A stretch of DNA of 64,000 bases from Microbotryum violaceum (Eukaryota): positions 62,001-126,000 of the forward strand of contig CDLV01000010.1 of the NCBI GenBank assembly GCA_001244265.2, in the 5' to 3' direction. Under the pieces are notes generated by a model. It was not told where the DNA came from. It did no database searches and was given only the letters and a program-made list of their open reading frames with translations. Below, piece by piece: positions 2,963 through 61,200 of the stretch. Position 1 is the first letter of the stretch, and each line of letters opens with the position of its first letter. The position numbers and the translations under genes were made by a program.

Positions 2963-3101
2963 GTCCAGGGAGACGAGACCACGAACTTCAGTCAACGGTC
3001 GATAGCAGAGTAGGCAATGATTGGTCAATTACACACCTTTAGTCCAGGGAGACGAGAACACGAACTTTAGTCAACGGTCGAAAGCAGAGTCAATGATTGG
3101 T
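2963..3101. repeat. Imperfect direct duplication of about 62 nt (period 79)
   Basis: gtccagggagacgaga(c/a)cacgaactt(c/t)agtcaacggtcga(t/a)agcagagt...caatgattggt at 2963-3025 and 3042-3101. Confidence 0.85.
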
Positions 3102-4941
3102 GAGGAACCAATCTAGAGGACTCCGCACCGCCGCAGTGACGCAGTCCGCGCCTCCCTGGCCAAAATGGCTAAAACTACCCAAAACCCCAAAGACGCTCCT
3201 GCACCCCTTAGCCATTATTGCTCGCGCAGTCCTTTCCAACAGTTGTCGCGGAAGCACCTCGCAACTCGCGCTTCGGCGCTTGTACGAGATTAAAGATGCT
3301 TACAGGAGTCGGTTGAAACCTCGCATCAGCTCCTCTGCTTAAGGGAATGCGCCCTCAGTAAAGTGGCACAACACTGAACGGAAAGGACTCCACTGTTTAG
3401 ATTCATCGACGTGATGCTTAACGTCGATGCTCCGACTGTTTCTCCCATTGGACATCGGACTCACTTGTACTTGGGAGGGGTCCCTGTGCCGTCGGAATCG
3501 TCATTTAAAATTGTCAAGAGTTCAGGAGTCTTTTCGGTTGTAGCGGGTCCGAGTCTTGGTTGTAGCAGGGCCGAGTTCAGGAGTCATTTCCAGAGTCGTA
3601 TCAAACTGTCAAGGTCAACACAGGTTTGGGCACATTTCTCATCGATAAACCGCTCCCGAGTAAATTCAGTACTTCGATGGCTCGAGGATCAACTATCAAC
3701 GACAAAGCATGCAACGGAAATGCACACGGGGGACCGGGCCGGAGGGAGAAGAAATGGGAGGAGCGGCTAAGTAAGCGGATGAGGCGGTGAGGGGGAACGA
3801 AGGCAGCGGAGCGGTTCGAATGACTAGGATGTTTCGGGGGAATTTGCTTCTTGTTCTCAGGTAAGGTAGACCAATTCTAGGATTCAACACAGCATCTTAC
3901 CTGGTTCTCACTTTCTGGGTTTCTTAAAGTCTCATTCGGCATTGTTCTCCGGTCTCAAGTCTCAGCGCCTCAGTCTCGTCTCTCGGCTTTCGTACCCCTG
4001 TCTCTCGGCCGTTCCGGTCGCTCTCTCGCTTCTCTCGTCTTGAATCTCTTATGAGTTCTCGGTCACACTTTATCTCTCATCTCTTATCATCTTTGATCGA
4101 ACCCTTTGCCTATACCATTGTCCCTGCACTGCCTAGAACTTGACCAGCTTGAGTGACGACGACGGTCGACAAGGCAGCGAGACAGTTGACAATATGAAGC
4201 CTCAAGACTTGCAGGGTCCAGCAGGTGAAGGTGGTGGCCAAAGGGTGGTGGCGGTTCGGGCTCGTAGGAAGGACCCAGCCTAATCTGTCTCGCAAGCGCA
4301 TGAAGTACCAGGGATCAATGTGAGACATACAACTCAGTGATTGCAACTGGGCCGACCATCGCGCTCGAGCATCGCTCAGGTAATTGTGTTTTCGTCACTC
4401 AAAACCACTGCGATTTATGTGGCAGAACATGAAATAAGCTCGGGCCGGGGCGGGCTGGCGAGCGGTAGATAGGTCGCGTCGGACCTCGTTTCCAACGTCG
4501 AAATTAGGAGGTCTTTTCGCTTTAAGGATCCAAAAGCGTAGTCGACGCACGTGCACCAACACCTCACTTTCACCTGGGTCGCGAGTTTTGCTTTGCTCTG
4601 GTCTCGTAGCAAGCTATTCACCCCTCGTTGCGACGAATCCGGGGTCGCGCCGGTCCCTCGAAGATCATGATCATGATGAATCACATGCCAAACGAAAGGA
4701 AAGGACCCTGCCCCCAAACCAAAGCAATCCCCCTGCGCATCGCTTCCTAGCGATTTTCCACAGTTTTCAAAGTTCGCTTGCACCAAGTTCACTTGTGAGC
4801 GCTTTAGAAGACGAGCTTGAACGTTGCTGGAGCCTAAAAGGTCACACGCAACGAGACAAGGGAGTGGCTGAACGTCAGAAAGGTTCCGAGCGCCGCAAGT
4901 CGCCGTGTTGAATTTATGTCTACTCCCTATTGGCCGGTTTC

Positions 4942-30797: not shown

Positions 30798-31668
30798 CGT
30801 GGGAGGGGGGGGGGGAGGCGAGGCCAGCAAGACTTTCGAGTAACAGAGCTCAATCTGCTACGTAGTGAATATTTCCCCGTGTCGACAATCCAAGGCTCCA
30901 AGTGTTGCGAGGGTAGAAGTCTAGTGAGCGCACGGGGTCGCGGTGAGTTCTCGGTCGGCTCGACGAAAAGGCGGGTGCACTCGGAAGCGCAATCGAAGCA
31001 CCTACGAGCGGGTGTCGGAGTCGGTCGAGGTGACTGTGAGCAAGACTGAAGGCTGATCAGCACCTTTGAATAATTATGTCAAGTTGAGTCGCTGGGCAAA
31101 GGTCCGACACAGCAAACGCGGATGCCAGCTCGGGCGGTGGGGTGCCGGTGGCGACGACGGCCGCCCAGCACGGGGTAGTGCGTAGGCACGTATTAGGGCG
31201 CAGCGGGGCCGCTCCTCGGCACCGAGTGGTCGTGCCAGTGAAAACACTATGCTTGGAGATATCGTATTCTGGACGCTTACCTGGTCTATTCTGGTGCAGA
31301 TGGTACAGGGCGTGATAGAAGGTCCAACTGGCGACGACACGAGCAGCACTGGTGCGACCGACGACGACGACGACCCGCGACGACGACGACGACGAGCGAA
31401 TCGAGAGAGGCCTGGCGACAGGAAGGGAGGATCAGGGGGAAGGGGTAGGGGTAGAGGGAGGCCGAGAGACGGGTAGGAACTGGCGACGGACGAAGAGCCT
31501 CCCTATACGCTCTGGAAAAGCGAATCTGGCTGACAACCTCAGCCGGGGTAGCGAGCCACCACGAGCTCTCGAGCTCGAGTCTGAGAATCTGAGATCTGAG
31601 ATCTGAGCAGCCAAGCCGTGGCACTGCCGTGGCGGTTCCCTCGAAGCTGAAGCGGTGCGCGTGTCGGT

Positions 31669-31753
31669 CGCTTTTTTTATTTATTTGATAGACTTCATTA
31701 ACAGCATAATTATATTAATACCCAGAAATCTTCGGAAAAGTCGGAGGGAATGC
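31669..31753 (+). repeat. AT-rich dispersed element of about 85 nt, copy 1 of 3
   Basis: cgc-T-tract-atttgataga.ttca.taacag...tacc...aagtcggag.gaatgc also occurs at 38492-38582 (+) and 38128-38215 (-). Confidence 0.8.
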
Positions 31754-32240
31754 TGTTACGCACACTGGCAGAAGCCAGTAGTGTAAGACTCATTGACCCT
31801 GAACCAGGATCAACCATACCCACTAAAACCCCCTTTGGTGTCTTACAGAGACACTAGGCGACCCTTGGACTCCTGGATCTCGAACTCCGTTTCGGTGATC
31901 GGTTCCAAAAGATCCGACGAGAATCGACGACGGCGACAGAGCTTCCAGATTGAGTGAAAGAAGAGGACTCGTAGTTCGACAAGTCGATGTTCCGAGCGAG
32001 ACACGACCGGGCATACAAAGTCCACAAAGACTGGGTGGGGGGTCGGGGACAGAGCAGACCAGAGGCGCCGGGCAAATGGGCAGCCGACCGCGAGGTGAAC
32101 CAGGCACTCGGGTGCTTCCGAGGGTCGCCGCGCTTGAATCCAGCATAGTCCAACATTCTCAGCATTACGAACGGGACCCACTCCGAACTAAAAGCGCACG
32201 TCATAAGCCCACCTTAAGCTTCCCACCGAGAGCAGCAAAC

Positions 32241-33872: not shown

Positions 33873-35587
33873 TGCGGATTATAATACGGAACACGACGAT
33901 CAAATGTTTCGAGGGTGGACCTGATCTTCGATGATGATCGGCACTGCGATGATCTGAAGCGGGACGGAATGGCGTTCCTCGTTTAGCAGTCGTCCAACGC
34001 ATTGTTGCGACAACGCCTCCAAATCCAGCAACCCTCCCCTCGAGTTCTGCAAGGGCTACGACCCAACTTGTTGACATGAGCAAGTCCGATTCAGGGATGA
34101 ATAGTAGTAGCACCTGAAGGGATCATAAATTAGCAGAGGGCTCCCCATGGCACTCAGTTTTGCAGAAGTCCTGAGTGACCACAATCCGCAATCCGCGAGA
34201 TGCGGCGATTGGCACGTACGGCGGCGAACTCGCATGAAATTCTCTAGCCCAATGGCAAATCCAGAAACAAGTGTGATAGTATTCCAACTTGAAGTGGATT
34301 GCAATGTCGCGCTCCTTCAAACGACATGTTTCCGGAGGAGATGGTTGCAGGGTTCTCAATTAGATGAGATCTAGAAAAATTGGGCTCTGGCCCTTATCTA
34401 TCTATCTCCCATCTTAGTCAGATATCTTGGATAGATGCCTAGATATCTAATTGGTATCTTAGTGGGTTAAGATGAGATATAGACAGATGTCTTTGAATTG
34501 GAGGCGGTCGATTGGCACTCGGAGGAGCCTGCCATTGGGTGGCCAGAACCACATTTTAAGTATCACAAAATGTGAATAAACTGGCAAAGCTGGATTTCTG
34601 TTCACTGTTTTCTGATTCTCTCTGATCCCGATCTGGACCGGATCCTCGACGATTCAGCTAGCGATTCGGGCGATCCTCAACAAGACCATGGCGAGACCCT
34701 CAGTTGCCACGCGACGCCTGGGTTGATGGACCCAAAGCGGCTCGATGCATCAGCTGGTAAGCCCGCGAACCGGAGTTGTTTGTGGCCCGTGGCGAGGAAA
34801 GTTCTGTTCTGCCTGTCGTGTGCTGATTGGGTGGGTGCTCCTCCATGCCATCGGCAGGCCCTGTGAACAGAGTCGGGCTCAGTTGCAAGGCGAAGTCGAC
34901 CGCCGTTCCCAGCCCGGATTCCCCCTACTTTCCCTTTCCATCGCATGAGGTGAGGGGTGGTGAGGCAACAGCGTATGGGCAGCACCTCACTTTTGGGTTC
35001 GCTGACTTTGATTTGCCCAAACCCCTTGGCCACAGATGTTAGTCGCTGTCTTACATCTCCGATCGCCGTCGAAACGGGTCGGCATGGCCCAGTACCAATC
35101 CACACGTTCCGTACGGCCGAGGCGTTGGCTTGACCCTGGTTGAATGTTGACTTCCAGTTGCTGAAGGCATATGGCATGTTGAGGAGGAGTCGAGCAGATC
35201 CTCACTGCTCGAAGTCGATTTTGAGGTTGCGCATGGAGTTGACGATAATGCGAACGCGACCAGCCCATTGATTGAAGCCCGATTCGGTTTGGACCCCTGG
35301 CGCCAAAGCTAACCTGAACCATGTTCCTTTCAGATGGCGAAGTCGTCCTTGGAGACAGCCGCAATAGATGGCCACAGTATCGCTGTAGGGTGTGCACGCG
35401 GCTCTCGGCGCGGCGTTGGAGTAAATCGCAGTTCCAGCGACACCTCAGCTCGGGCGCGCATTACAACAACTTACAATTCGCTACAAGATTCAGCGACGAC
35501 CGAGCCGCCGAGCCGAGCACGCTGCCGTCGTCTCCGTACCGCATGGTTACGCCTGTGTCGGCGAGGGGGTCGAGCGGGCTTGATATT

Positions 35588-35862
35588 CCGACTTGATTGA
35601 CCAGGGGCGCAGAGTTGGTATGTGCGCCATGAGTTCGCGCAGTACGGGAATAGCGAAGTGCTGAGAAACAGAAGATGGCGGTCGGGAGGAACCGAGGCTT
35701 CGTCAGCGATCGTGACAGCGGTAACAGTGACGCGAGCCCGCCGACCGCGGGCCCCGGCTGCGGCCGTACGGCCATCTTCTGTTTCTCAGCACTTCGCTAT
35801 TCCCGTACTGCGCGAACTCATGGCGCACATACCAACTCTGCACCCCTTGTCAATCAAGTCGG
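35588..35862. repeat. Inverted repeat: 92-nt arms, 91-nt spacer
   Basis: 35588-35679 is the reverse complement of 35771-35862, with 2 mismatches by eye. Confidence 0.95.
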
Positions 35863-36088
35863 CCGCCGACACGCGTGCTTTCTGGGAGCTGCCGCCGAAT
35901 GCTCGGACCCCGATGCCACGATTTGCCGCCTTTGACGTCTTCATCGACGAAATCGTAAAGCACGTGCGCGAACAGCTAGTGTATGTGACGTCCTTCATAC
36001 AGGATGAGACGCAAGTCAAGATCTTTGTCGCACGCGCTCGGATCATCTCGGACGGCGACGACGACAAGAACCGTCTCATTCACGTCGA

Positions 36089-36560
36089 CCTGGATGTAAA
36101 ATTCGCCCTTGATTTGTTCGCCAAGGCCACAGCTCGATTGGGTCGCGAGCCAACTGATCAACTCCTGCTTCTCGTCCGCACTTCGCTTCGTGGTAGTTGA
36201 TACCCAAAGGTACTTGACCATTCCAAGGAGCAGTATATGTAGAAGATCGGGTGGTGTTGCGAGGTGAGGATCGTAGTCTGGGCGACGAAGTGCGGACGTT
36301 CTCGTCGCTTTCTTGACGGACGTGGGATTGTTGCTTCGGCGCCATTGCTCGGCAAGCCCGGGCCTCTGCCGAGATCTATCCTCACCTCGCAACACCACCC
36401 GATCTTCTACATATACTGTTCCTTGGAATGGTCAAGTACCTTTGGGTATCAACTACCAAGAAGCGAAGTGCGGACGAGAAGCAGGAGCTGGTCAGTTGGC
36501 TCGCGACCCAATCGAGCTGTGGCCTTGGCGAACAAATCAAGGGCGTATTTTACATCCGGG
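36089..36560. repeat. Inverted repeat: 183-nt arms, 106-nt spacer
   Basis: 36089-36271 is the reverse complement of 36378-36560, with about 6 mismatches by eye. Confidence 0.95.
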
Positions 36561-37680
36561 CTTCGACATCCTGTGTCGGCAAGGACTATAGGGTCATCGC
36601 TCAGATTTTCCCCCTGGTCGCCTACTTGCTTCAGCAGCGCATGTGGCTCTCCCAATCCGAAGCAGAGTGCTGGATGGCCCTCGGCAAACTCACGCGACAT
36701 GCGATGCGTACTGACACCGACGACCTCGCAGCCTATGCCGACACGTACAAGGTTCTCGCCACTCGATTCGTACTACTATCCTTCCCACGTGGTCAGCAAG
36801 GTCAAATATCACTACCTACTGCACCTCGAGGAGGCGATTTGGCGGTTCGGTCTGCCGAGGATGTTCGACTCGTCCGTCGCCGAGTCAGCGAATAAGACCG
36901 TTCGCGACTACTGCATGCATTCGAACCGCCACTCACCTATTCGTGACATTGCCTGTCAAGACAGCCAGGCACACCATCTGGTCTTCATCGCTGCGGGAGG
37001 CCGATGGGAAGCCGCTGACGGACCCCAAGGCCACCGCCGGCCCCTATGTTTCGCAATTCTTTCGCGTCGCAGGAAGGGAGCGACTTTCGACGCGAACTAC
37101 GGCTGGACAATTGGAAAGATCCGAAGGTCGACAATCGACACGTGCATAGTGGGATGGCTCTGGGCAACGCGAAGACTGCTTTGGCGACTAAGGAGAAGAT
37201 CGACGGCACCCGAGCGTGTGCCGCGCTTCATCATAGTCTTTTTGAATGCACTCGGAACCACGCCAAGCTTGCGTCCAGGTCGCTTCGTCACGTTGCGCAA
37301 TGGGGATTATTGTTGGTCCCGAGATTGGTGCTTCGTTCAAGCTGGTCCGCAAGATCAAAGGGTACGTCCCCGCCATGCATTGGATCGTGGTGCGTCCGTG
37401 TCATTCGCTGACGAGAGAAGTGATGCCCGTCGGTCAGCCCCGGGTGGCGCAGATCCTTGAACTCTGGACCGTGGACGGCCGACCGCCCGAAGTGATCTCA
37501 CCCTTCGGGCTCAGCTTTGTGGTGCTCGCCTTCGCGGCCGTGGGCGAGGAACTGGGCGACACCAGGTTTTTGAAGATACAGCGCATGGAGGAGATTGAGG
37601 TTATGCCACTTGAGGTGAGCACAAAGGCTCGATCCATGATGCTGCCTATGACGCGCTGATGGCCTTCAGCCACCCGGCAG

Positions 37681-38123
37681 GTTCTCATGGCGTTGGCCCT
37701 CGTTCAGCACGATTGCTCTGGACCTTGCACTCTGGGCTCTGGGCGAGGGCGTTCGGCCAATCTTCGCAGAAGGCCAGTACACCCGCCGCATTGCGCGGGG
37801 CGTCGTGCACGACAACGACAGAAACTTTTTACTTAGCACCATCAATTACCGACCGTACGATATTGTCGACCTCTTCGCTCCTTTACCAATCCCACCACAA
37901 GAGAGCGACGAGTTCCTTGAGGGCCCTTCTGCAAAATCCACGATATCGTACGATCGGTGATTGATCGATTAATGATGCTAAGTAAGAAGTCCTTGTCGTC
38001 GTCGTGCGCGACGCCCCGCGCAATGCGGCCGGTGTAGTGTCCTTCTGCGAAGATTGGCCGAACGCCCTCGCCAGTGCAAGGTCCAGAGCACTCGTGCTGA
38101 ACGAGGCCCAACGCCGTGAGAAC
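37681..38123. repeat. Inverted repeat: about 185-nt diverged arms, 73-nt spacer
   Basis: 37681-37866 matches the reverse complement of 37940-38123, with many substitutions and two short indels. Confidence 0.9.
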
Positions 38124-38586
38124 CGCTGCATTCTCTCCGACTTGGCCAAAGGTTTTTGGGTATTTGTACAATTACACTGTTATTGAAATCTATCAAATAA
38201 AAAGATAAAAAAGCGCGCAGCCCCGGCGAATCCAACTTCCCTATCGGGTCGGCAATCGCTTGTACGGACACACAAGGGTACAAGAGCTGGTCACAGCGTG
38301 CCTGTATCAATCTTCGAGCCGATGTATTATGGGATGTCGTCAATCAATCACTCGAATCCCTTATTGCGGACTATCGGTCCACACTCGTCAACACGGCGTA
38401 TGCACCTGCGTCCCTGCCAGTTGGCATAACTACATCATCAATTTGATCTCTGAGGAACACATGTCAGGAAGTCGGATTCGCCTGAGCTGCACGCTTTTTT
38501 GTTTTATTTTTATTTGATAGAATTCAATAACAGTAGAATTATATTATTACCTAAAAACCTTTGGAAAAGTCGGAGGGAATGCAGCG
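38124..38586. repeat. Inverted repeat formed by two copies of the AT-rich element, spacer about 264 nt
   Basis: 38124-38221 matches the reverse complement of 38486-38586, diverged. Confidence 0.85.
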
Positions 38587-38938
38587 TCGACCGCACTCCT
38601 TGATTCCCTATACCCCAACGGTGATAAACCATGTAGAATGACTTGATGGGCTAATTGCACTGTTGGCACCCGTTGGCACTTGCCGTCCCTTTCTCGAGTG
38701 TGAGAGTACATCGCTGCTGCACAATAATCAGAGTGTGAATGGGGTGTCGGATGCAGAGGATCTACTTGCTGGACTCTGCAGCGATCATTGGGCATATTCG
38801 GCCCAGCTGCCGTGCTCGGCCTCCGTCAAGGGGCCCCGAGCTCGATTACTAATGACATTCGTCGGCCGGAGCTCGCTGTGACGCTGCTCCCCACCGCGTT
38901 CCGCTTTCTTTCTCCCATTCACAACAGCTAACAGTACC

Positions 38939-39647
38939 ATGTGCCTCGAAGCGACTTGTGAAAAGTCAGTACCCCTCAGGAATTCAACAAGATCTGCCGG
39001 AGCTGACCAAGGCTTCTCACCTCTTTTCTCAGCTGCAACCAATTGACGTGGTGGGTCACGCGACTTGGACTCGTGCCCCACATCTTCTCATGCAATGGCG
39101 CATCCCCACAAAGGGCGTGCTCCACCAAGCGGGCAAGCTTACTGACCACCTACGAATGCCTCGATTTCCCTTATCGTTGGCCTGGATACGTGCATAGGTG
39201 GTGAATTGTCTCGCCCTACATGCGATGTACCCAGCTCCCGGCGCGGTTAGCTGATCATCGGACACGCTTGCCCCATCATCCCTATGCATGTCGCTTCCTC
39301 GAACGTCGTCCAATTGCACACCAACAGGGGATGCGGAGGCCATATCGCCTCGGTGATGGACAAGATTCCCGACGGCAAGCAGTGCAAGTGCGACCAACCG
39401 GGTGGACCGGGAGCCAAACCTAGGAAGCCATCGACGGTGAGCGCTGGTTTTCTCACTTCCTCGCCCCTTCAACAGCGACACAATATCCTCCCTTCTGCTG
39501 CTCTGATGCTTGATGTGACGGTGTTGATAAGTGCAGTCGCTGATCCCAATATCCGTTGTTCTATTTTTGCTCGCGGCGCTGTGTTGGTGGTTGACGTAGG
39601 CTCCGGCGGGTAAAGTCGATGTGCATTACAAGGGACCCCAGGAGTGA
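38939..39647 (+). CDS. 67-aa Cys/His-rich putative metal-binding microprotein, 5 exons including a 3-nt micro-exon
   Basis: Exons 38939-38964, 39033-39050, 39198-39200, 39328-39436 and 39600-39647 give MCLEATCENCNQLTWWGCGGHIASVMDKIPDGKQCKCDQPGGPGAKPRKPSTAPAGKVDVHYKGPQE*. Each intron is GT...CTGA(C/T)...YAG. It matches the remembered MCxxxxCxxCxxxTWxGCGxH pattern of uncharacterised small proteins. Confidence 0.75.
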
Positions 39648-48259: not shown

Positions 48260-49979
48260 TCGAGAGTCGAACGCGCTGGAGCAGCGGTGAATCATTGCCG
48301 GAAGATAGGGTGTTTATACAAAGTGTTCATTACTTTTATGTTGTGTGACTAGATAACCAATGACCAATGAAGCAATCTTGGAGCCTCATGACGGAAGTAG
48401 GAGATGTTGATTGCGTTTGCCGAAGCGTCCGCCCGGGAGCAGCGCCCATTTCTCCGGGGATCTGGTAGATCGTATCTACTCACGTTGCTCCCCACTGCAA
48501 CAAGTTCGAAGCACCGTAGGCTAGCAAATCCTCAAAGACGAGATATCAAGTTTTCCGTATGCTGGGAAGTCGTAGAAGCATGTATGCGCAGCCAATCCAG
48601 GGCGGCGTCGAGACTTACTGGGTCTCATGGTCTCCGGTAGGCGGAAAATAATCGGAAGAATCACCAGATCATGCACACGAAAAACAGATGATCCCATTCT
48701 AACAATGGGTTGAAGAAGAAAACGTCAGCAAAGCGATCACCTAAGGTCTGTCGAGAGGAGGCCGATGCCGAAAGGAGGATAGACGTCGAGGCCGAGAAAG
48801 GTGCCGAAGGTGCAAGAATACGAGAGCGCGTTCGAGAAAGGAGAGGGACTCACCTTGGTATTTCCGTTCTACTTAAAATATCCTAGCTTGAGTGGAAAGA
48901 CGATGTGGTTAAGAATTGATGATGCCGGCGATGGTGTGCGAGCGCGGAAGCACGTCCCATCTGGCGCAAAGGCGCGTCGACGGGATCTCCGCCGCCACGA
49001 AGCAGTGACATGGCACAAGGCTGCCGATGATTTGGACTCAAATATGAGCACTCACATATCAAGGGGCTGTGTTATAGGCGATCCTGAGGAGCCCCTGAGC
49101 GAACAGCAACGGGGATGCGTAACTGAGACTCGATGATGTCTGGCCTAGGCGAAGGAGCAAGGTGGCGGTTTGCGCTGGCCCTCTGTCGAGCAGTGCCGTT
49201 CAGCGGAGGAGGAAAGAGCTTCCATTACAGCAAGGAGATGACACTTGACGAAGATGGTCCTTCGGCTGGTACAGGGTCATGGCGAGTTCCTCCGATAAGA
49301 TCGCCGGGGGAAAGCGCGTGGCACCACGTCGAAACCCACCCGACTCGGAGCAGCGGATCTCGGTCAGCCCCCAACTTACCTCTTGTCAACAGCTGTCAAC
49401 AATAGACGAGGCCAAATCATGGCAGTCAGTCGACGCGTCCGAAAAAGCACGCACTCTCGGTGATGTGGAATCCCCGTTAAATAGCTCCGAGGCCGGTTTG
49501 AAGCTAGGGCACGTCGCACGGTCCCCGGCCTTGAATGAATGGCGTTATGCATGACGGTGGCCGAGCCACCGCACTACGGTGGCACAGAAAATGGAGGCTT
49601 TTGCCGGTGAGTGAAAACCGTGATGCGGAATATTATTTGAACACGGTGAAGAGAAGAATACAAGTACATAAGAGTGGGACTGATTGACTCTGAAAGGATC
49701 ACCGAGCAAAACGGTTTCGCGACTACAATTGCGACAGTTCTTCCTGATACGCCGGGTTAATTCACTAGTAGGTGTCTATGCGCGATTTGCGAGACCTGGT
49801 AAATTTACCCGAGTCGGAGCACGGGCGGTCGCCAGGTCAGCTGTCCCATTTTAACGACGGCGTCAGGCCGGCTGACGGCAGAATCGACTCAGTCATCGAG
49901 TCCAGTCAATCGCGCGCGATTTTGGTCGGGCGTGGTTCCTCTCACTCGCCGGGATCAAGACCATGTTGATCTCAAAAAA

Positions 49980-51890: not shown

Positions 51891-54143
51891 ATGCCCATCT
51901 CCTCCACCACCAACCACGACTTTGACAAGTCGGTCAGCACCGGCATGGTTGACGCCAGCCAGGTCCACAAGACCGTCGTCCCTGAGTGAGTCCTGTTTGA
52001 CGGCCTTCTAAGTTCAGGGGCCGCGTGACCCAACCGGGCGCGGCGCCACTCCTTCGGGGCACCGCTCGGCTGTGGAGTTATTCTGCCACGCGAGCACAGG
52101 AGGCGCTCGCCGGTGCTTCCCTCCTCCCGAGAACATACCTGGGCCATAAATCTTCTTGCTGACTACTTCGATATTGTTCGTGCATTACTTCACAGTCCTC
52201 AAATGCTGGAGAATGTTTCTACTAATCTCGGCGAGACGACCGTTAACGATGCCGCTGAGACCGCCATTAAGGAGCGCCAAATGACCATGTTCCAGGCCAT
52301 CAAGGCGTACCCTTACGCCTGCGCTTGGTCCATGTTGTTCTCGACCGCGATCATCATGGAAGGCTTCGACTTCACCATGATCTTCTCCTTCTACGCTCTC
52401 CCCGCCTTCCAAAAGAAGTTCGGTGTCCCCATCGGTGGCGGCAAATACGTGATTACCCCCGCATGGCAAACCGGTCTCTCGAACGGTGCTCAGGTCGGCT
52501 CCATTCTCGGTCTCATGGTCAACGGTTGGGCTTGCGATCGCTTCGGATACAAGAAAACCATCTGCACTTCGCTCGTCCTCATCACCTGCTTCATCTTCAT
52601 CACCTTCTTCTCGGTTAGCCTTCCCATGCTTCTCGTCGGCGAAATGTTATGCGGTATCCCATGTAAGCCCTTTTGAGTCGACGCGGATGCCATTCTCCAA
52701 TACTTTGACTAACTCATCTTCGCTTTCTGTCATGGCCGCCTCACAGGGGGTGTTTTCCAGACTTTGACCACTGCCTACGCCGCCGAGGTCTGCCCCGCCC
52801 CGCTCCGTCCTTACCTCACGACCTACGTCAATCTCTGCTGGGTCATGGGGCAGTTTATCTCCTCCGGCGTCTTGAAGGGCGTTTCGGGCATGAACGAGAA
52901 CGACCAATGGGCTTACCGCATCCCCTTCGCTTTGCAATGGGTGAGTGGCGTGCCTGCCTCGACAGAGATTTTCAACTTTCGGTCCTGATCCGCCTCTTCA
53001 TTTCAGATCTGGCCCCTGCCTATCCTCGCCTGTGCCATTTTCGCTCCCGAGTCGCCTTGGTGGTTGGTTCGCCAAGGTCGCCTCGCCGACGCCGCCAACT
53101 CGTTGACCCGTCTCGGTTCGCTTTCTGCTGAGGGCTTTGTCGATGTCGACGCCAAGATTAACCAGATGATCTTCACCAACGAGATGGAGAGGGAAATCAA
53201 CGCCGGCACGACCTACTTTGACTGCTTCAAGGGCACCAACTTGCGCCGTACTGAGATTGTCTGCATGGTCTGGATGATCCAAACCCTGGCCGGCTCGGGT
53301 TTCATTGGCTACTCAACGACCTTCTTCGAACGCGCTGGCTTGTCCAGTTCTAACGCATTCTCGCTCTCGCTCGGCAACTACGCTCTTGGTGCCGTTGGCA
53401 CGATCTCGTCGTGGTGGACCATGCAGTGGTTTGGCCGCCGCGACCTCTACATGTGGGGTCTCTTAGCAATGAGCATCGTTCTCTTTGGTGTCGGTGGCTC
53501 CGGTTTCGGCAAATCTTCGGGCGCGTCGTGGGCTTCGGGTGCTCTCATCGTCGTTTACTCGTTCCTGTACCAATTCACAGTCGGCCCCGTGTGCTACTGC
53601 CTCGTCGCCGAGATCCCGTCGACGCGTCTTCGTGCTAAGTCGGTCGTGCTCGCCCGCACCTCGTACAACATCATTGGCATCATCAACAACATCATCTTCC
53701 CGCGCATGCTTTCGCCCCTCTCGTGGAACTGGAATGCCAAGGTGAGACCTTTCTCTTTCCCTCTCGCACCGTGAGCTTGACCCCTCGGTGGATCGTGTTG
53801 CTCACCAATCTCTTTTGTTGTGTGACTTCCTTACAGGCCGGTTTCTTCTGGGGTGCTTCGTGCCTCCTGTGCACAATCTGGTGCTTCTTCCGCCTCCCAG
53901 AGCCTAAGGGTCGCGTGAGTTTGCACCCACTGTCTGGAGCCCAGCGTCTCTTCCTCACGTCTTCGCTGCGCTGTACTGATCGATACATTGTATCTGTGTG
54001 CCTTCCCGTAGTCGTACTTGGAGCTCGACATCATGTTTGAAGACCGGATTAGCGCACGACACTTCAAGACGACTGCTGTAGATGTACGAGCCCATGCCCG
54101 ATCGGATGAGAAGCACTATGAACCCATGGGCGGCGTCCATTAA
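51891..54143 (+). CDS. MFS sugar porter, maltose/alpha-glucoside:H+ symporter family
   Basis: WSMLFSTAIIMEGFD; FYALPAFQKKFG; DRFGYKK; AYAAEVCPAPLRPYLTTYVNLCWVMGQ; YRIPFALQW; PESPWWLVR; CFKGTNLRRTEI; AEIPSTRLR; LPEPKGR/SYLELDIMF. Confidence 0.93.
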
Positions 54144-58739: not shown

Positions 58740-61200
58740 TCGCAACATACCTAGAGGGCAGTATATACTTACTGCCCACACCGTCAGGCAAGGCACTCGC
58801 CGGTTTCGATGGAAAGTTTCCCGAGAGGTACTACGTGGCTCGTGATATCGAGGCGAGTATGTCTACTCCTTCATCGAGTTTTTCGGTCTGGCAATATTGA
58901 CCTCTCCGTCCCGTCGCTTTCCCAGATGTGCTTGACGATCTTCAACGACTTATCTTCCCATGGGTCCGAGAAGCGGCTTTGGCCGAGTTCGAGGAGCGCT
59001 TTGAGGCCGACGAGCTCTGTCAAGACAAGGCGTTGGTTGGTCACTTGAAGCTGATCCAATGGTTCAGACTTATACTCCTTCAAGATACGGCGTTTTTGAT
59101 TCAAACCTATCCGAGGGGAATGGCCGCGAAGAAGCCGCCCCCTTGAAGTGGTGTACAGCGGCCTCCTTGATTCCATCGTCGACAGGCTAGGCGCTCAGCA
59201 ATCCTCGGAACGCCAATCTGCAACTGCTCACTTTCGCAGCGATCATCGTCGAATCTTGGAACTTCTCATCGAACAGCAGAATCGAGGCGGTCACTTTCAC
59301 GGTCATGTAAGGAAGCGACGACTACTCGAATTTGTCCGCGCATCCGACAGACAAATCACGACGATCGTCATCGAAGTCATCGAAGTCGCGGAGAAATTCG
59401 GGTCGTCGTCGCTTCCATGACCGTGAAAGTGACCGCCTCAATTCTGCTGTTCGATGAGAAGTTTCAAGGTTCAACGATTATCGCTGCGAAGGTGAGCAGT
59501 TGCAGATCGGCGTTCCGAGGATTGCTGAGCGCCGAGGCTGTCGACGATAGAATCAAGGAGGCCGCCGTACACCACTTTGGGGGCGGCTTCTTCGCGGCCA
59601 TTCCCCTCCACACTGGCCACAAGATGCGGAGCCCACGTTCGAAATCGGTCCGACTGAAACAGGCTCGTTTGGTAAATCGGTGCATCTGGATAGGTTTGAA
59701 TCAAAAACGCCGCATTTTGAAGGATGACGAGTTTGAACCTTTGGATCAGCTTCAAGTGACCAACCAACGCCTTGTCTTGACAGAGCTCGTCGGCCTCAAA
59801 GCGCTCCTCGAACTCGGCCAAAGCCGCTTCTCGGACCCATGGGAAGATAAGTCGTTGAAGATCGTCAAGCACATCTGGGAAAGCGACGGGACGGAGAGGT
59901 CAATATTGCCAGACCGAAAAACTCGATGAAGGAGTAGACATACCGATCTCAGCAAGTCGAGCCAACTGCCAGCTCCTGCCTCCGATCAAGCACCAAGAGT
60001 GCCGATTCACCCGAGTAGGAGATTGGATGCAGCTGTGCGTCGCCGCTAAATGCGCTTGGGAAAAGGGGGACGTTGTACCATTCTCGATACCCGTATTTCG
60101 AACTGCCTTTAGAGAAGTCTGGCTCGAACGAACCATATGGGAGACCTCCAGTGTGCTCACCGTGGAACCACATGTAGAAGGCAACCGCGCCGACATTGCA
60201 AATACAAGGGTCGAAATGACGGGCAACGGGCTTGTAGTCGAGACGACCTTCCTTGTTCGTCTTGCCCGAATCGGCCACGATATAGAGCGTCTTGATCGGC
60301 GGGTGATCCGGTCGTTCGAGCGCTCGCATTGACAAATCCGAGAAGGCGAGAGCACGTCGCCGCGGAATAGTGTGGCGAGAGAGACTGCCCACTGCACATG
60401 GCGCGGTTGCGAAGCGACCGGGTCACCGAATGTACGGCGGTCAGCTTACCGGTCGGCCCCTGGCAAAGAAGGTGTTCACTGATTTGTAGTTGTTCTTCTT
60501 TGGTGACATTGTCGGATGCCCCTTTGATTTTGTTGGTCTGGGCGGACTTCTTTTGACCGGCCTCGCGTTTTTCTTCTAGCCGACCTCGAGAGTACCGATC
60601 GGGAGAAAATCTCGCAGCTTGCCACGGGCCGGAACGCTTGTGCGATCAATTGAATCTATTAGACGATACTGGAGGCACGTCAAAATCAAGCAACATGTGC
60701 TAATCTAGGGAGTAGATCCATTGCGGGTACGAAGGGAAAGGCATGCGAGCTTACATGGCATGTTCGAGGGCGTTGAGATGCTATGAACGGTGGGGAAGCC
60801 GGCATGGCGCGATCAACAGACGCCCACTTCGCTAGGTGCCTGAGAGGCCAGTCACAAGCCATAGTCGAGAGATAATACTCGCATTCTTCAGCACCAAAAC
60901 ACCAATGGTTGTGACTTCGATGTCCTCGCCTTGATCGGCACCCGTACCTGATCCGCGCGCGGGTCGCTTAAACTCGGAGCTCAAAAAATTCAAGACCATG
61001 TCTGGGTCGATCGGTCAAACGCAAGCGCCGGGCCACGTTTCAGCCATGAATTTGGTGTAAAATTTGAGCGATTTTTCGTATCCGCTGACTGTCTTGGGCG
61101 CCAAGTTGGATGTGCTAGTGCAGTTGGCGATGATCGCGTTGTTCGACGCTTGAACTAGAATCTCGGCCAGACGACGGGCGGCGAGCAGCAACCGTCAGTA
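58740..61200 (-). mobile_element. Decayed Crypton (tyrosine-recombinase DNA transposon, Ndc10-II-like domain), internally inverted
   Basis: Minus strand: APKTVSGY...VLNFL; ATLFRGD; RALAFSDL; GKTNKEGRLDY...RHFDPCICNVGAVAFY; PDFS...EWY; LIFPW...VILQNAAFL...PIYQTSLFQSDRF. Plus strand: KALAGF...YYVAR.../LQRLIFPW...ILLQD. It has stops, frameshifts and an intron. Confidence 0.75.
58857..59943. repeat. Quasi-palindrome of about 1.1 kb (arms 58857-59340 and 59387-59943)
   Basis: The outer 203 nt are identical (58857-59059 vs 59741-59943). The inner arms are diverged, the left arm lacks about 80 nt, and the loop is about 46 nt. Confidence 0.95.

Follow-up and report, generated by a model that had tools for sequence, protein, structure and literature searches.

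How does a 3-kb stretch of decayed transposon sequence come to carry a row of separate hairpins, and do such hairpins serve as templates for silencing RNA, or are they the scars of a mutational process? The question is raised by a locus of Microbotryum violaceum, whose assembly comprises 33.17 Mb in 20 contigs with a GC content near 55%. The locus lies in a stretch of 64,000 nt (positions 62,001-126,000 of contig C8), hereafter the window, which also carries intron-bearing fungal genes. A first-pass annotation, made from the letters alone, had described here one transposon relic folded into four hairpins and had offered both answers.

Four inverted duplications within 3 kb

The four inverted duplications were each recovered as inverted repeats by gapped alignment of the window, just as first described. 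We name them H1 to H4. Their folding z-scores range from -20 to -43 on either strand, and when sample DNA was shuffled, this detector found no inverted repeat in 298,570 nt. The features of the locus are as follows.

34,881-37,936, plus strand: dead transposase relic, putatively of the CMCT clade (CACTA/EnSpm-Plavaka-like), with collinear tblastx/tblastn matches to family copies L029-L032
35,292-35,553, plus strand: out-of-order piece immediately ahead of H1, 5' part of a related element (85% DNA match to L033)
35,588-35,682, minus strand: H1 left arm, inverted copy of an intron end and exon start
35,683-35,767, minus strand: H1 loop, apparently an inverted intron, whose splice signals (donor, branch point, acceptor) lie on the minus strand and lead into the left arm
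35,768-35,862, plus strand: H1 right arm, transposase exon in original orientation, continuing to ~36,050
36,084-36,271, minus strand: H2 left arm, inverted copy standing in place of >1 kb of transposase
36,272-36,377, minus strand: H2 loop, inverted upstream coding sequence (ALRRPDYDPH)
36,378-36,567, plus strand: H2 right arm, transposase in original orientation, with an H...DxxH motif
37,680-37,869, plus strand: H3 left arm, last exon in original orientation, starting at a splice-acceptor-like site
37,870-37,936, plus strand: H3 loop, direct, with a continuous match to L034 and L032
37,937-38,124, minus strand: H3 right arm, inverted copy; the 3' remainder of the element is lost
38,124-38,240, plus strand: H4 left arm, a LINE 3' UTR end of ~95 nt with A-rich tail, joined to the opening ~20 nt of a Copia gag
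38,225-38,466, plus strand: H4 loop, direct, Copia gag 5' fragment with an internal deletion of ~145 nt
38,467-38,586, minus strand: H4 right arm, inverted copy of the gag start and LINE end

By gapped alignment, the core arms of H1 match over 95 nt with 3 mismatches around a loop of 85 nt, a slight revision of the 92 nt, 2 mismatches and 91-nt loop given at first. The arms of H2 align over 188 nt with 6 mismatches (loop 106 nt), and those of H3 over 180 nt with 17 mismatches and 18 gap positions in two indels (loop 67 nt). For H4, 117 nt align with 17 mismatches around a loop of 226 nt; the earlier arm of about 100 nt and loop of about 264 nt had left out the inner ~20 nt of the arm. The idea of one transposon relic for all four did not survive, as three TE families (CACTA/Plavaka-like, LINE and Copia) contribute to the array.

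Hairpin junctions in short-read assemblies

We placed short-read contigs from four studies on 34,900-39,100 and scored the 8 new junctions created by the hairpins. Five of them, namely the outer junction of H2 and both junctions of H3 and of H4, are spanned by at least 31 letters per side in runs X8, X13 or X18, and the bridging contigs belong to studies P3, P4 and P7. The inner junction of H2 is spanned by 30 letters. The outer junction of H1 is spanned only in run X15, which shows almost no differences, may be the source sample and is not counted as independent; for the inner junction of H1, there is no spanning contig among the pieces listed (114 further pieces are not shown). None of the short-read contigs over 34,900-39,100 skips a hairpin.

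One contig of run X18 equals a flipped H2 loop, joining 36,190 to 36,458 on opposite strands. This joint falls in 39 identical letters, where a misjoin in the assembly graph would give the same sequence.

The transposase relic carrying H1, H2 and H3

Six other loci in the genome match the relic transposase, with best protein identities of 33-39%; at the DNA level only two other loci match, neither of them across the arms of H1 or H2. Plavaka-bearing clusters are the closest to a family protein (score 0.96, with Plavaka on 46% of members), one family-copy frame gives a weak Transposase_21 match (E=0.003), an H...H motif occurs in the relic and CxxC occurs only in the family copies. Pfam returned no family for any relic frame tested. 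From these likenesses, the relic is probably placed in the CMCT clade, and not more finely at the level of superfamily. Compared with the clade as set out in the accessible part of PMC12730594 (EnSpm/CACTA, Plavaka), it shares the transposase homology, the H...H motif and, in the family copies, CxxC, whereas it lacks the central catalytic part, and termini and target duplications were not found. No clear terminal repeats stood at the boundaries common to the family copies, and the true ends of the relic were not found. The stretch at 36.8-37.3 kb had been considered a LINE reverse-transcriptase piece and was dropped, being the same transposase by family alignment. The out-of-order piece before H1 is homologous to the N-terminal zinc-finger-like segment of L032.

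The H1 loop would be inverted, judging from its splice signals and from an intron at the same place in family copy L031. In H2, the transposase motif ALRRPDYDPHLATP reads on the minus strand from the loop into the left arm, as the first-pass annotation had noted, and is collinear with the family copies. The relic contains nothing that matches the family segments L030:3531-4508, so that >1 kb is missing at the outer junction of H2. An ending of the H2 loop at a splice site was considered and dropped, the relic being without that intron. A later flip of the loop by recombination between the arms would also yield the picture of an inverted loop. The left arm of H3 has an 80% DNA match to L034.

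A LINE end and a Copia gag in H4, and a Crypton relic in H5

The LINE family of the H4 arm has 224 first-look candidates in the genome, and its sequence lies downstream of a LINE ORF2-like frame with a weak zf-RVT match. The gag fragment is 83% identical to a young high-copy Copia family, of which the copy L036 carries Retrotran_gag_2, rve and RVT_2. Derived bases and a truncation point are common to both arms, indicating that the arms come from one duplication. H4 as a pair of MITE or Foldback terminal inverted repeats was rejected, because the arms are a LINE 3' end plus a gag start and other copies have one arm only; the arm as a Helitron end was rejected likewise, being the LINE 3' end.

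The window holds a fifth, longer hairpin, absent from the first description.

58,857-59,943, minus strand: H5, Crypton relic; arms 469/542 nt, 21 mismatches in 463

The H5 relic gives an NDC10_II match (E=1.2e-8), and its parent copy L070 is 91% identical.

Two age classes

The hairpins had been read as events of different ages. Arm divergence does support two age classes, with H3 and H4 probably older and H1 and H2 probably younger, but not four, since H1 and H2 do not differ (Fisher test, p=1.0) and H3 cannot be told from H4 (p=0.19). H2 is less diverged than H3 (p=0.017) and than H4 (p=0.0005), and the comparison of H1 with H3 gives p=0.085. Gene conversion between arms could feign youth or blur the age classes. 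The arms of H1 and H2 are 97% alike, yet no DNA-level relative was found in the genome.

Derived state and template-switch geometry

The hairpin is absent from the transposase at 6/6 family loci (L029-L032, L038, L039), and is also absent from L034 at the H3 site, from the gag of the Copia copies L036 and L037, and from the Crypton copy L070. Because homologous copies are free of hairpins, the hairpins are the derived state. Their inverted segments were copied from nearby sequence with defined switch points. H1 and H2 have no close parent, so their junctions were deduced, with mapping at the protein level only.

Microhomology at the junctions, which the first-pass annotation had suggested looking for, is present at sister loci with close hairpin-free parents (3-10 nt): 5 nt at L059, 6 nt at one junction of L035, 8 of 10 nt at L093, 8-9 nt at L050 and 3 nt at L117. 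For H1-H4, whose parents are 80-83% identical or absent, it could only be deduced. Other junctions contain fillers, of 11 nt at L055, 14 nt at L041 and 23 nt at H5.

Loop orientation was mapped for 15 events. The loop is inverted in seven (H1 by inference, H2, L041, L055, L059, L088, L093) and direct in four (H3, H4, H5, L117); in two, the return lies before the first switch (L035, L045), L047 is a multi-switch event and L050 is undefined. The fold-back or template-switch geometry originally proposed for H2 holds, as its left arm and loop are both inverted, and its recurrence is also seen.

Two known kinds of event are close to these structures. As described in the accessible part of PMC5453318 (Loytynoja and Goldman 2017), four-point template switches likewise create an inverted repeat from unique sequence, with a direct (3-2-1-4) or an inverted (1-3-4-2 / 3-1-2-4) spacer, and need little prior repeat. 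In those terms, H1 and H2 are 1-3-4-2 events, for which an inter-strand switch is needed, and H3 and H4 are 3-2-1-4 events. Those events are short, whereas the Microbotryum arms measure 50-1,200 nt, with deletions >1 kb and fillers, and the return before the first switch point seen in two Microbotryum events is a class not observed in that part of the source. The spontaneous inverted triplications of Aspergillus flavus, as far as the accessible part of 10.1101/2025.01.14.632981 describes them, are similarly fungal and sub-kilobase, with junction deletions and enrichment in heterochromatic repeats. They are rare, transient and tied to AT-rich palindromes, in contrast to the Microbotryum fold-backs, which are fixed across strains, lie in transposon DNA of 55% GC and are mostly not triplications.

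Fold-backs elsewhere in the genome

We sampled 60 regions amounting to 598,000 nt, of which 20 were at fixed positions (one per contig) and 40 were taken from 120 evenly spaced planned regions. The sample holds 19 inverted repeats. Seven have loops of 19-108 nt; the other 12, whose loops measure 433-2,232 nt, resemble as a group terminal repeats or inverted neighbours and were not counted as fold-backs. All seven short-loop repeats belong to dispersed repeats, established for four by cross-matching the sample with itself and for three by genome search; this agrees with the confinement to TE-like DNA noted at first. One of the seven, L079, may be a small insertion with a target duplication. Extrapolated from 7 in 598 kb, the genome would hold roughly 390 fold-backs, with Poisson limits of roughly 150-800. 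In the 153 kb of C8 around the window, the other 8 inverted repeats, at five loci, are all in repeats too.

Repeats make up at least 27% of the sample. For Microbotryum, the accessible part of PMC4469406 puts coding DNA near 36-40% and the mean intergenic length at 502 nt; with that coding share, repeats would constitute ~0.44-0.65 of the non-coding DNA, giving P 0.003-0.05 for seven of seven. The hosts of fold-backs include Copia, Helitron, Crypton, CACTA-like and LINE elements and a kinase-bearing subtelomeric repeat; with so many element classes, the fold-backs do not depend on any one transposase. Frames lying over the short-loop hairpins of the sample had no Pfam family. Arm identity ranges from 85 to 100% across hairpins, with a 100%-identical hairpin in the young Copia copy L035.

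At the rate for repeat DNA, at least four fold-backs in 3 kb have a probability of about 1e-5 per 3-kb bin; over 3,000-4,000 repeat bins the expectation is still about 0.04, for a window that was chosen for its array. Smaller hairpin clusters occur at L045, L047, L034 and L117.

RNAi machinery and tests of an RNA role

The first-pass annotation had asked for Dicer, Argonaute and RdRP, and all were found: the genome encodes two Argonautes, one Dicer-type frame with two RNase III domains and one RdRP. The same set is reported as expressed in the accessible part of PMC4469406, which agrees with the present genome in GC content as well. Perfect duplex 21-mers number 51/75 in H1 and 82/168 in H2, and 0/97 in H4.

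The idea of a hairpin-RNA template or TE-memory locus did not gain from the tests that followed. In about 1 Mb (~3% of the genome, including Copia and LINE copies), no arm 21-mer matched elsewhere for H1 (0/99), H2 (0/256), H3 (0/325) or H4 (0/197), and a genome-wide DNA search of limited sensitivity found no near-identical target in trans for the arms of H1 and H2. Near-identical targets in trans are present for H5 (121/761 arm 21-mers) and L035. Over 20 hairpins, plus-strand transitions numbered G:U 58 vs A:C 57, a test of low power (115 transitions) that gave no G:U bias; nor was there a strand bias of G:U per hairpin (heterogeneity p=0.92 over 11). Strain SNPs were not depleted in arms: 6 fell within 1,085 nt of arm sequence and 11 within 1,828 nt outside arms (p=1.0; 17 SNPs, low power), and three alternative alleles of the arm SNPs restore a pair while three break one. 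With G:U and A:C equal and SNP density the same, the decay looks neutral. These tests are weak, but all of them point away from a maintained trigger at the H1-H4 locus. Collapse of arms in the short-read contigs may affect the SNP counts. Run X18, which is RNA only by guess, has a patchy depth of 2-6, alike over the relic and its flanks, and was used neither way.

Ac killer is reportedly a further case of a partial inverted transposon duplication able to form hairpin RNA. The array resembles Mu killer of maize (accessible part of PMC3440606) as a partial inverted transposon duplication that could form hairpin RNA in an RNAi-competent host. Mu killer is transcribed, makes small RNAs and silences an active cognate element, whereas the likeness of the Microbotryum array is one of DNA structure, with considerably shorter arms and no close target left for H1-H3. 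As the search for targets came out empty for H1-H4, the array is not classifiable as a killer allele; a function of H1-H4 as an RNAi trigger or killer would be possible at most. The accessible part of PMC9757828, on fungal hairpin small RNAs, states that natural long hairpins still need exploring. In the part of the Microbotryum literature covered, we found neither transposon fold-back hairpins nor small-RNA data.

Discussion

The array is real, recurrent and confined to TEs, and it belongs to a known class of mutation. We consider it fairly probable that the hairpins were left behind by microhomology-mediated template switching at stalled forks or breaks, a process that would recur throughout the genome and whose products would last in repeat DNA. 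Of the two answers offered at first, the better fit is a fold-back mutational process that neutral DNA tolerates, perhaps biased towards TE chromatin. The enzymatic route that we infer would begin with a polymerase leaving its template during replication or break repair, copying 100-1,200 nt of the opposite strand or of itself, and then returning, often with deletion of the neighbouring segment in the switch. Fold-backs would recur genome-wide and persist almost only in transposon or other repeat DNA, where they would be harmless, and silent repeat chromatin might stall forks more often. The cluster would be best explained in one of two ways: hairpins are fragile, and an existing one may seed more events nearby, or H1 and H2 may be one serial, multi-switch event. 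Any double-stranded RNA from the hairpins would be a by-product.

Two observations run against this reading. The enrichment in repeats exceeds the non-coding share, so that plain tolerance may not suffice, and several events lie near the 5' parts of elements (the Copia gag at L035, L041 and H4; the Helitron start at L093). Such 5' placement would be a prediction of selection for promoter-driven hairpins; H1-H3 and H5 are not so placed.

Alternatively, accidental fold-backs of transposons might be transcribed and diced, as at Mu killer, and kept by selection because they silence cognate families, in which case the 3-kb array would store a memory of several families (a CACTA-like element, a LINE and a Copia). 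The expressed RNAi set, the perfect duplex stretches of H1 and H2, the location of all seven short-loop repeats in dispersed repeats and the identical arms in the young Copia copy would all suit such selection, as would the lack of any close copy of the H1/H2 family, which is what a successful purge would leave. We regard it as unlikely, since G:U pairs show no excess or strand bias, SNPs are not depleted, the arm 21-mers of H1-H4 have no match in about 1 Mb, H4 has no perfect duplex 21-mer, and H4 pairs mostly LINE UTR with the gag sitting in the loop.

Silenced elements might instead, through their chromatin or transcription (methylation, R-loops, RNAi-directed breaks), raise the local rate of fold-back repair above that of other neutral DNA, with or without later use. 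Enrichment beyond the non-coding share, the strong clustering (about 1e-5) and the bias of unselected A. flavus events to heterochromatin (accessible part of 10.1101/2025.01.14.632981) speak for this quite unlikely alternative. However, unique non-coding DNA consists of short introns, UTRs and promoters, which are constrained, so the enrichment cannot part rate from retention, and the sample holds only 7 events.

The reading of hairpins as amplification or assembly chimeras, or of H4 as a MITE/Pack-type element with terminal repeats or as two independent LINE insertions, is hardly credible and already largely refuted: the inner junctions of H1 and H2 lack a 31-nt bridge in the listed contigs, and the H4 arms are AT-rich and high-copy, like terminal repeats, but arms differ by 3-15% including indels, unlike amplification chimeras, five of eight junctions are bridged by contigs of three studies with no hairpin skipped, and both H4 arms share the LINE 3' end, derived bases, truncation point and ~20 nt of gag, with no target duplication seen.

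The way in which RNAi comes to recognise a newly arrived transposon has yet to be explained, and the known natural killer inverted repeats amount to a few cases in maize. A far-reaching answer, which we hold to be distinctly improbable, would be that fold-back conversion strikes every TE class at a high rate, leaving hundreds of events per genome and clustered multi-family arrays that RNAi uses as a dispersed, self-renewing library of killers. If true, it would be a mutational route to de novo transposon recognition, in the role played by piRNA clusters, and H1-H3 would be the used-up record of a family that has since disappeared. With an estimated several hundred fold-backs of 85-100% arm identity, some of them in young high-copy families, and a single Dicer, the question is testable in Microbotryum. 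Its value lies in the genome-wide set rather than in the H1-H4 array, which is among the less likely functional members because its arms have lost their targets. If the fold-backs should prove silent, the set would still be a natural record of mid-sized template switches with mappable junctions.

The Crypton hairpin and other inverted sequences in the window

Window 58,857-59,943: fold-back (H5) hosted by a Crypton relic
Window 31,668-32,122, minus strand: 5'-truncated copy of the LINE family that supplied most of the arms of hairpin H4, 95% to other copies
Window 48,916-49,006 / 53,596-53,686: weak inverted match, 74% over 94 nt, between two sugar-transporter-like stretches

H5 is the longest of the five hairpins in the window, and its host relic is one of only two Crypton loci that we found in the genome. 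Because 121 of the 761 21-mers of its arms occur exactly in the other Crypton copy, H5 is a better candidate than the hairpins H1-H4 for a killer, that is, a silencing allele of the Mu-killer type.

Compared with its family copies, the CACTA/Plavaka-like transposase relic that hosts H1-H3 lacks two introns and retains two others. The loop of H1 starts exactly at a splice donor (window 35,683-35,786), and the outer end of the H3 arm coincides with a splice acceptor (window 37,680); these coincidences may be due to chance. Clustered differences in the left arm of H4 (window 38,160-38,176) make a short palindrome, possibly reflecting a micro template switch. The truncated LINE copy lies upstream of a methyltransferase-like gene. 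The sugar-transporter match has the look of paralogous coding sequence rather than of a fold-back.

Fold-backs and other repeats elsewhere in the genome

L123:3250 to L093:2905 (G000:C9): 5' part of a Helitron, folded back into arms of ~1.2 kb, 99% identity
L035:6261-6744 (G000:C11): Copia gag fold-back, 129 nt, perfect
L045:151-1311 and L047:4006-4833 (G000:C8, left end): clustered and multi-switch fold-backs in a subtelomeric repeat
L079:1238-1427 (G000:C1): palindromic insertion of 176 nt, same sequence on C2
L075:173-1205 and 1950-2105 (G000:C3): ~155-nt segment of adjoining sequence, repeated in tandem as three to four copies, with a 63-nt inverted repeat

The remainder of the Helitron is gone, and the shape of its fold-back resembles that of Mu killer. 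The Copia copy is young and of a high-copy family, and its fold-back geometry resembles an inverted triplication. The subtelomeric repeat includes a fungal protein kinase frame; a copy on C6 (L090) is without the fold-backs.

The palindromic insertion is composed of two copies of a common repeat end, inverted to each other, with an apparent target duplication of 5-6 nt. Contigs C1 and C2 are identical in sequence at this site, as expected for paired mating-type chromosomes whose ends are shared. The tandem copies and inverted repeat at L075 adjoin the Piwi exons of the second Argonaute, the locus of which may be rearranged.
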